A DNA stretch of 64,000 nt from Escherichia coli (GTDB lineage: Bacteria > Pseudomonadota > Gammaproteobacteria > Enterobacterales > Enterobacteriaceae): assembly GCF_046105845.1 (NCBI RefSeq), contig NZ_CP151004.1. One strand, given 5' to 3'. The notes under the pieces were generated by a model, which had not been told where the DNA came from, did no database searches, and saw nothing but the letters and a program-made list of their open reading frames with translations. A program made the position numbers and the translations under genes. Below, in pieces: positions 1 through 398 of the stretch (within the stretch, counting starts at the first letter, position 1; every line of letters begins with the position of its first letter).

Positions 1-398
1 TTTATTCCAGCAGATTTAATAGTTTCAACAAAAAAAGAAGAGTTCGTCACTAAATCAATCAAATTCCCTTTGAATGATTTAGTGAATGTGTAAATTAAAG
101 AGTATGTTTTTTGTATCTCAATAGCATCTCTAAAGAGGGGGTGGTGTACAATGCCACTATCGTAAATGACCCCTTCATTTCCGATAGTATCTTTATTTAC
201 ATTAAATATATTAGATAAATATTCCTTTATTGCATGAAGCTCATCATCCGAGCAAATAAATATTGAGTGCGCAGCGTATATCCCTCGATCTTTCAGTGAA
301 ATAAATATTGGATAAGACCCATCAACTAAATTGAGTGGGAATTTATCTTTTGAAAAAAAATCTTTAACTTCAGGTTTTTTTATGAGCAAATTCTTCAT
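1..398 (-). CDS. hypothetical protein, candidate T6SS immunity protein (N-terminal 132 codons; ORF continues past window start)
   Basis: Manual translation of the minus strand from ATG at 396-398 is open to position 1 (MKNLLIKKPEVKDFFSKDKFPLNLVDGSYPIFISLKDRGIYAAHSIF...). It starts 14 bp after the stop of the upstream candidate effector. Very AT-rich. Not in the supplied ORF track because no stop lies inside the window. Function inferred from position only. Confidence 0.4.
   Translation of the reverse strand, partial: MKNLLIKKPEVKDFFSKDKFPLNLVDGSYPIFISLKDRGIYAAHSIFICSDDELHAIKEYLSNIFNVNKDTIGNEGVIYDSGIVHHPLFRDAIEIQKTYSLIYTFTKSFKGNLIDLVTNSSFFVETIKSAGI

Follow-up and report, generated by a model that had tools for sequence, protein, structure and literature searches.

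Among the effectors of type VI secretion systems (T6SS) are characterised toxins that act as ADP-ribosyltransferases (ARTs): TreX and Tre1 are neutralised by TriX and Tri1, respectively, soluble proteins that are encoded directly downstream of the toxin and occlude its active site, and that are unrelated to each other (PMC11606950). TreX is an Rhs ART toxin of Xenorhabdus bovienii, of which a complex with its immunity protein is available (PDB 8s2m), while in the Serratia proteamaculans pair Tre1-Tri1 the T6SS ART effector has a cytoplasmic target, and its immunity protein, also cytoplasmic, blocks it by insertion into the active site. Here we analyse a 64,000-nucleotide stretch of Escherichia coli DNA (contig NZ_CP151004.1 of assembly GCF_046105845.1; hereafter the window), at the left edge of which a truncated gene on the minus strand follows the gene of a 296-residue putative T6SS cargo effector. 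The initial annotation of the window had proposed the truncated gene, hereafter the partner, as a candidate cognate immunity gene, and this proposal is supported by the conserved gene order, by orphan copies of the partner and by the absence of any contrary homology. On the basis of this comparative and structural-prediction evidence we put the probability that the partner is the cognate immunity protein of the effector at roughly 0.7. The cassette is closest in its logic to TreX-TriX and Tre1-Tri1 and is functionally an ordinary T6SS effector-immunity cassette; since TriX and Tri1 are themselves mutually unrelated, the lack of homologs with known function for the partner is no argument against such a role.

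Two further systems are relevant to the glycine zipper that forms the C-terminal region of the effector. Tde1 of Agrobacterium tumefaciens is also a T6SS effector with a cytoplasmic target and a glycine zipper, and its zipper is reported to be required for crossing the inner membrane of the target cell (PMC10240207). In the type VII secretion system (T7SS) of Staphylococcus aureus, the glycine zipper of the toxin EsxX is sequestered by ExiAB (PMC12744356).

Gene order and orphan copies

The minus strand of the window encodes an E. coli T6SS cluster with an OmpA-family gene, hcp, tssH/clpV, vgrG, the effector and the partner, and tssK/L are found in the reference (Table 1). The partner gene is thus adjacent to and on the same strand as the gene of a T6SS effector, a putative toxin linked to the T6SS spike. 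To place this arrangement in a wider context, gene surroundings were collected for three homologs and 49 loci from a species-representative genome set, and all open reading frames (ORFs) were searched with profiles of both families. About 38 loci were found in which an effector-family ORF is directly followed, on the same strand, by an ORF that matches the partner profile. Six phyla are represented among these pairs, with members of Gamma-, Beta-, Delta- and Alphaproteobacteria, Bacteroidota, Myxococcota and Gemmatimonadota, and the two genes either overlap, by as much as 11 nt, or are separated by a gap of up to about 25 nt. The layout of vgrG, effector and small gene on which the initial annotation had built is therefore confirmed, both by the order of effector and partner across phyla and, within the window, by the overlaps of 7 nt between vgrG and the effector and of 11 nt between the effector and the partner. 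Given these two overlaps, the three genes are tightly coupled to one another and arranged for joint expression.

Table 1 Features at the left end of the window (64,000 nt) discussed in the text.
Feature	Position	Strand	Basis or remark
Partner gene, visible part (codons 1-140 and 2 nt of the 205-aa gene)	1..422	-	Translation; full-length coding sequence in other genomes; profile match; AlphaFold2 model
Downstream ATG: Met9 in the 205-aa protein, first codon of the 197-aa form	396..398	-	GenBank, UniProt
Most likely partner start codon ATG, inside the last codons of the effector	420..422	-	RefSeq start; profile; shared junction
Effector/partner overlap, 11 nt (effector end ...GAT GAA AAC TAA, partner start ATG AAA ACT AA...)	412..422	-	Sequence
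Effector, 296 aa (NCBI name 'glycine zipper family protein')	412..1302	-	Predicted N-terminal ART-fold toxin domain and C-terminal glycine zipper
Glycine-zipper/hydrophobic C-terminal region of the effector, residues ~238-290	433..591	-	Invariant glycines; hydrophobic windows
Predicted ADP-ribosyltransferase domain, residues ~41-190	733..1182	-	Predicted structure and motifs
Candidate catalytic D169-K170-E171	790-798	-	Start of strand 171-175
Candidate catalytic S103-T104-S105	988-996	-	On strand 101-105
Candidate catalytic residue R46	1165-1167	-	On strand 43-48
vgrG, 829 aa	1296..3785	-	ORF, annotation; 7-nt overlap with the effector start
OmpA-family (TagL-like) gene, 569 aa	7182-8891	-	

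The fate of the two genes where the cassette decays is likewise informative. In five genomes an intact partner gene stands beside a C-terminal effector stub of about 40-140 residues, so that the partner persists as an orphan copy next to no functional effector: this is seen in Aeromonas taiwanensis (L050), Buttiauxella massiliensis (L051), Rahnella rivi (L055), Cupriavidus sp. BIS7 (L041) and Duganella sp. 1224 (L047), whose stub is joined to part of an IS21 transposase. Both genes are decaying at four other loci (L029, L033, L038 and L043), and an intact effector of the standard type without a partner was seen only at contig ends or in distant fusions (see below).

These observations bear directly on what else the partner might be. 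It could be a passenger or accessory gene whose product regulates, is secreted as a further (co-)effector, or is required for the activity of the toxin; no database gives it a function, which would suit such a role, yet the tight coupling to the effector across phyla and the retention of the partner after effector loss, when a helper or co-effector would be valueless without its toxin, make this quite improbable, as does the fact that no DNA-binding or enzymatic fold was detected in the partner. The main alternative is that the partner might be a cytoplasmic chaperone or pre-secretion neutraliser of the glycine-zipper tail, modelled on the Eag chaperones of T6SS transmembrane effectors or on ExiAB, that keeps the effector soluble and harmless until it is loaded onto VgrG, in which case protection from incoming toxin would be absent or supplied by something else. 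T6SS adaptors and chaperones are, however, usually encoded upstream of their effector, whereas the partner gene lies downstream, and intact partners are kept where the effector has been destroyed. Further, the conserved domain of the partner co-diverges with the ART domain and not with the zipper (see below), the match of the partner to the chaperone SciW is no better than generic α/β matches, and the VgrG and PAAR proteins beside the effectors have C-terminal extensions of their own that could dock the effector. Taken together, these points render a chaperone role unlikely. The pair has neither the DUF1795 fold nor the effector with N-terminal transmembrane helices and prePAAR that characterise Eag/DUF1795 chaperone systems. 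In the VgrG of the window, the Pfam families GPD, Phage_base_V, T6SS_Vgr and DUF2345 reach residue 743, and the tail of about 85 residues after DUF2345 was matched by no family.

Reading frame and start of the partner gene

The frame described in the initial annotation, running from the ATG at 398-396 for 132 codons to position 1 on the minus strand, is indeed stop-free, while the remaining five frames of positions 1-422 contain 4 to 18 stops each. At 31% G+C, as found locally, 0.081 stops per codon are expected; a stop-free run of 132-140 codons then has a chance probability of P ~1e-5, and the open frame cut by the window edge is a real gene. The low G+C content that had been pointed out is also evident, with 0.307 in positions 1-400 as opposed to 0.57-0.63 in the adjacent T6SS core genes, and the effector and partner genes together look like an acquired low-G+C cassette within the E. 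coli T6SS cluster.

The exact start requires a correction. The ATG at 398-396 is the start of a form that exists in public records, the 197-aa protein of GenBank and UniProt (ECP_2809 / A0A454A768); RefSeq disagrees and gives a 205-aa protein that begins at ATG 422-420, eight codons earlier, up to which the frame is also open. The upstream ATG is most likely the start of the partner and the downstream one lies eight codons too far inside the gene, because the family profile aligns from residue 1, with which ATG 422-420 is the sole compatible in-frame start, because residues 5-12 form the first helix of the AlphaFold2 model, the N-terminal residues aligning with those of homologs, and because an ATG at exactly -11 relative to the effector end recurs in Enterobacterales, Vibrionaceae, Aeromonas and one Litoreibacter. 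The distance from the effector stop (TAA 414-412) to the downstream ATG is 13 nt, not the 14 bp given initially, and the 11-nt overlap that results from the upstream start suggests translational coupling of the two genes.

The window thus covers residues 1-140 of 205, and the leftward extension called for in the initial annotation was obtained from other genomes. The first 1400 bases of the window are matched at ≥99% identity in 41 of 5426 complete E. coli genomes, in all of them on the chromosome and among them that of uropathogenic E. coli (UPEC) 536, and in these 41 genomes the partner ORF extends to 205 aa without an early stop or frameshift. In E. coli 536 (ECP_2809 / WP_000856463.1) and DETEC-S792 (WP_225304173.1) the partner is an intact coding sequence of 618 bp (205 aa) labelled "hypothetical protein", and a full-length copy lies at 9979-10596 of locus L001. 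The window and 536 alleles differ at three residues in the visible 140, with three nonsynonymous and one synonymous differences in the partner vs none and five in the effector (Fisher p 0.048, from counts too few to carry weight).

Predicted fold and architecture of the effector

The effector family comprises 344 clusters at 90% identity, is spread over several phyla and has a mean column identity of 65%. The N-terminal domain of the effector is quite probably an ART of the R-S-E type, as judged from its predicted structure. In the AlphaFold2 model of the effector fused to the partner through a linker, from which the fold was read, the domain resembles the CARDS toxin (similarity score 8.3), the pertussis-like ArtA of E. 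coli (8.0, root-mean-square deviation 2.9 Å over 115 residues), the Rhs toxin TreX in its complex with TriX (7.8), Scabin (7.5), pertussis toxin S1 and a KptA-like RNA 2'-phosphotransferase (both 7.2), DarT (5.9) and heat-labile enterotoxin (5.7). The features that define the R-S-E clade, an arginine on strand β1, S-T-S on β2 and [QE]-x-E before β5, all have counterparts, as the positions of R46, the S-T-S motif and D169-K-E171 match those of the catalytic residues of the clade, and R46, S103 and E171 are invariant in both alignments. The assignment rests on predicted structure and motifs because sequence profiles alone (Pfam and NCBIfam) detect no ART domain in the effector.

The last 100 residues of the effector comprise a hydrophobic helix and a long glycine zipper with the invariant glycines G240, 241, 248, 252, 256, 260, 264, 266, 271, 274, 275, 279, 282 and 285. 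The zipper region is the sole site of hydrophobic windows in the protein and is modelled with low confidence. By analogy, Tde1 is the best available model for the role of this region, which most plausibly helps the effector to cross the inner membrane, although Tde1 is a DNase and its toxin domain and immunity protein are unrelated to those of the present pair. What is more unusual about the pair is that its effector joins the predicted ART domain to a glycine zipper at the C-terminal end. A colicin-like pore-forming activity was also considered for the effector and was not adopted: the only profile match, of the effector family to the colicin B pore-forming domain, is non-significant (E 0.48; residues 147-294, window 421-863) and falls on the glycine-rich hydrophobic hairpin, where it is probably compositional.

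The same module occurs in other settings. In Saprospira grandis (L046 160-1770) and Acanthopleuribacter pedis (L054 7-2415) the ART domain and zipper form the C-terminal domain of long proteins, which were recognised by eye as Rhs/YD-repeat proteins and in which the last catalytic motif reads E-x-E, and fusions of the toxin to LysM are found in two metagenome loci (L058 712-2119 and L059 314-1210) and in a planctomycete (L045 4650-5807). In both metagenome loci the LysM-fused toxin is followed by a protein of about 115 aa that consists of the conserved domain of the partner and a charged tail, and in L059 the fusion has kept the zipper and lost the ART domain. These apparent Rhs and LysM fusions show, as far as can be predicted from the sequences, that the effector is a portable toxin module.

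The partner family

The partner has no named family in Pfam, NCBIfam or PADLOC, either as the partial or as the full protein, Pfam names none in 81 family members, and searches of PDB sequences with the partner yielded no relative. Profile searches on the full protein, proposed initially as a check, thus gave no match to an unrelated function. A word-indexed search of 5.8 billion proteins recovered the E. coli cluster alone, and it took an exhaustive HMMER search of 1.84 billion representatives to reveal the family, with 187 proteins at E≤1e-3, of which 77 reach E≤1e-10. The family spans at least 187 representatives at 50% identity; the proteins are mostly 180-230 aa long and most of the matches cover query residues ~105-204, while the partner itself matches the family profile with an E of 4e-59.

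In an alignment of 64 members the N-terminal half is variable, and the C-terminal part carries the conserved motif PPPW-x-FP-x2-DP-x3-GSLQG-x2-E-x-WW-x3-W-x-PFW-x2-L-x3-E, with P145, F149, Q161, G162, P174, W176 and W197 near-invariant. This Trp-rich domain (residues ~141-205) lies wholly beyond the window edge, and what the window encodes is the variable N-terminal α/β domain. The partners of Bacteroidota and the ~115-aa subfamily encoded after LysM-fused toxins consist of little beyond the C-terminal domain, which marks it as the putative functional core of the family. The AlphaFold2 model of the partner is of high confidence, with a predicted local distance difference test score (pLDDT) of 92.9 and a predicted template modelling score (pTM) of 0.86.

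The full partner is acidic (pI 5.2), its highest 19-residue Kyte-Doolittle window reaches 1.03, and by hydrophobicity neither it nor most of its relatives contain a signal peptide or transmembrane segment; it is predicted to be a soluble cytoplasmic protein. The absence of such segments, noted initially for the visible part, therefore holds for all 205 residues; the 140 residues visible in the window represent the poorly conserved half of the protein. A SuFu-like immunity domain was considered and rejected: AFDB attaches the label 'Suppressor of fused-like' to one Burkholderia relative, but Pfam found no SUFU or SUKH domain in 64 + 17 members, and the partner itself has no SUKH/SuFu profile match.

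Some family members are more elaborate. In P0154, P0166 and P0220 the partner family is fused, at either end, to a conserved hydrophobic domain with the motif GGLTSRGV ... HP-x-RA, in which four transmembrane helices were recognised by eye. In P0220 the family domain is N-terminal to the hydrophobic segments and has no signal peptide, an arrangement that by prediction places it in the cytoplasm. The hydrophobic domain can also be encoded by a gene of its own (L060 3196-3675, in locus L060 3196-4960); near the other loci the search for such a separate gene returned one weak match. At L061 1918-4211 the fused form follows a PAAR protein and a lipase-like protein with a GxSxG motif in place of an ART effector. 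AFDB entry A0A699GEH9 also matches the partner model; this 'PAAR motif-containing protein' of 734 aa, listed under the plant Tanacetum cinerariifolium, is most likely a bacterial contamination in which PAAR, effector and partner have been merged into one gene model.

Possible mode of neutralisation

ARTs need NAD+, which is cytoplasmic; the effector is therefore expected to act in the cytoplasm, and its cognate immunity protein should be cytoplasmic as well. The cytoplasmic target suggested initially agrees with the predicted NAD+-dependent ART fold of the effector, and the partner, which lacks a signal peptide and transmembrane segments, would reside in the compartment where the toxin is predicted to act. 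In the model that we favour, the effector would be carried on the VgrG spike into a neighbouring cell, where the glycine-zipper tail, by analogy with Tde1, would help it to reach or cross the inner membrane, and the ART domain would then modify an essential target using cytoplasmic NAD+. In the producer and its kin the partner would bind the toxin stoichiometrically in the cytoplasm and block it, the most probable contact being one between the Trp-rich C-terminal helical domain of the partner and the ART domain, as with TriX and the N-terminal domain of Tri1. The partner has no similarity in sequence or fold to TriX.

Some indication of the domains involved comes from the divergence of the two families. 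Over 28 pairs, the distances of the partner C-terminal domain correlate with those of the ART domain with a Spearman coefficient of 0.79, and with a partial coefficient of 0.69 when the zipper is controlled for (permutation p 5e-4), whereas the coefficient with the zipper is 0.07 (p 0.24) when the ART domain is controlled for. Suggestive only, the comparison links the C-terminal domain of the partner with the ART domain and not with the zipper.

Several observations weigh against this reading of the partner as an immunity protein. Shared phylogeny confounds the co-divergence, as does the small amount of information that the glycine-rich region holds, and the AlphaFold2 model of the effector-partner fusion (30-residue linker, 28 paired sequences) has a pTM of 0.41 and no confident interface. 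Nor is the pairing obligatory: among the distant fusions, the two apparent Rhs proteins of Saprospira and Acanthopleuribacter and the planctomycete LysM protein have no partner, the former two being followed by unrelated small genes (186 and 136 aa), while no small gene was identified after the latter. Finally, L059 pairs a domain-only partner with a zipper-bearing protein that has no ART domain, and some members of the partner family are fused to hydrophobic, apparently membrane-spanning domains; both of these arrangements fit a zipper- or membrane-directed role better than occlusion of the active site.

On account of the fusions to apparently multi-pass domains and of the domain-only partner that accompanies a zipper-only protein, the partner might conceivably act as a cytoplasmic guard, catching the toxin at the inner face of the inner membrane as the zipper carries it across. 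Such a role would be analogous to the sequestration of EsxX and is, in our estimate, a doubtful proposition. The staphylococcal system differs in that it belongs to a T7SS, that EsxX is a membrane-depolarising toxin without an ART domain and that ExiB binds the zipper itself, whereas here the co-divergence signal points to the ART domain; moreover, a membrane immunity gene like ExiCD is absent from the E. coli cassette. Were it true, however, the partner would be the first case in a T6SS of a soluble protein that acts from the cytoplasmic side to neutralise a membrane-active glycine-zipper module, an analogue of ExiAB in the T7SS, and the pair would offer a handle on inner-membrane crossing by T6SS cargo effectors with cytoplasmic targets.

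A different kind of protection would be enzymatic, with the partner taking the ADP-ribose off the target again, in the manner of Tri1 with its ADP-ribosylhydrolase domain or DarG with its macrodomain. Immunity proteins of this type exist for ART toxins (PMC11606950), and the near-invariant polar Q161-G162 could in principle be catalytic. In contrast to Tri1, which has an ADP-ribosylhydrolase domain in addition to its inserting part, the partner shows no detectable fold or sequence signature of an ADP-ribosylhydrolase or macrodomain of the Tri1 or DarG type, and for that reason a reversal of the modification is extremely improbable.

Stoichiometric neutralisation of the toxin by the partner thus remains the preferred reading and, if confirmed, the pair would define two unnamed and widespread families, distributed from Enterobacterales to Bacteroidota and Myxococcota. 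The effector family would be a free-standing T6SS cargo toxin with an ART domain and a C-terminal glycine zipper, and the partner family a cytoplasmic immunity protein with a core Trp-rich domain of about 65 residues that has no structural relative. Current models would not be overturned. Two "hypothetical" genes in the T6SS cluster of UPEC 536-like strains would gain a function as a swappable cassette, the immunity family could join the profile sets used for finding orphan immunity genes, and the architecture of the effector would provide a compact system for studying how a cytoplasm-acting T6SS toxin crosses the inner membrane. The pair appears to be unannotated but widespread, and neither protein seems to have been studied: searches by accession, old and new locus tag and description found no paper on either, and Ma et al. 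2018, which is outside the searched literature and is reportedly a catalogue of the 'VT modules' of E. coli vgrG islands, may list the cassette.

Distribution of the cassette and neighbouring genes

The ART-effector/partner cassette is present in fewer than 1% of complete E. coli genomes. A further 77 complete genomes (L062 6001-6109 and 76 others) lack the cassette and retain 109 bp from the 3' end of the partner gene as a remnant. In these, the first vgrG is followed by another two-gene cassette, encoding proteins of 246 and 227 aa that are both hypothetical, and the partner remnant lies just upstream of the second vgrG; the remnant is a scar of cassette replacement.

In 536 and DETEC-S792 the second vgrG begins 47 bp after the partner gene. 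Downstream of the partner, L001 10644-16417 contains this second vgrG with hypothetical genes of its own (262, 306 and 404 aa), followed by tssM. The 262-, 306- and 404-aa proteins have no NCBIfam match, and the set is presumably another uncharacterised effector module. DETEC-S792 (L002 243-9105) has one more module, vgrG-DUF4123-DUF3304-DUF2235 (Tle1-like), inserted upstream. According to the annotation of this strain, the vgrG ahead of the ART effector carries a frameshift; its counterpart in the window is intact with 829 aa.

The OmpA-family gene of the window also differs in length from its counterpart in E. coli 536, with 569 aa vs 550 aa (only the lengths were compared). It contains a perfect tandem duplication of 19 residues, in which PWLLWSGLSGSPLPEKAHS occurs twice, corresponding to an in-frame repeat of 57 bp.
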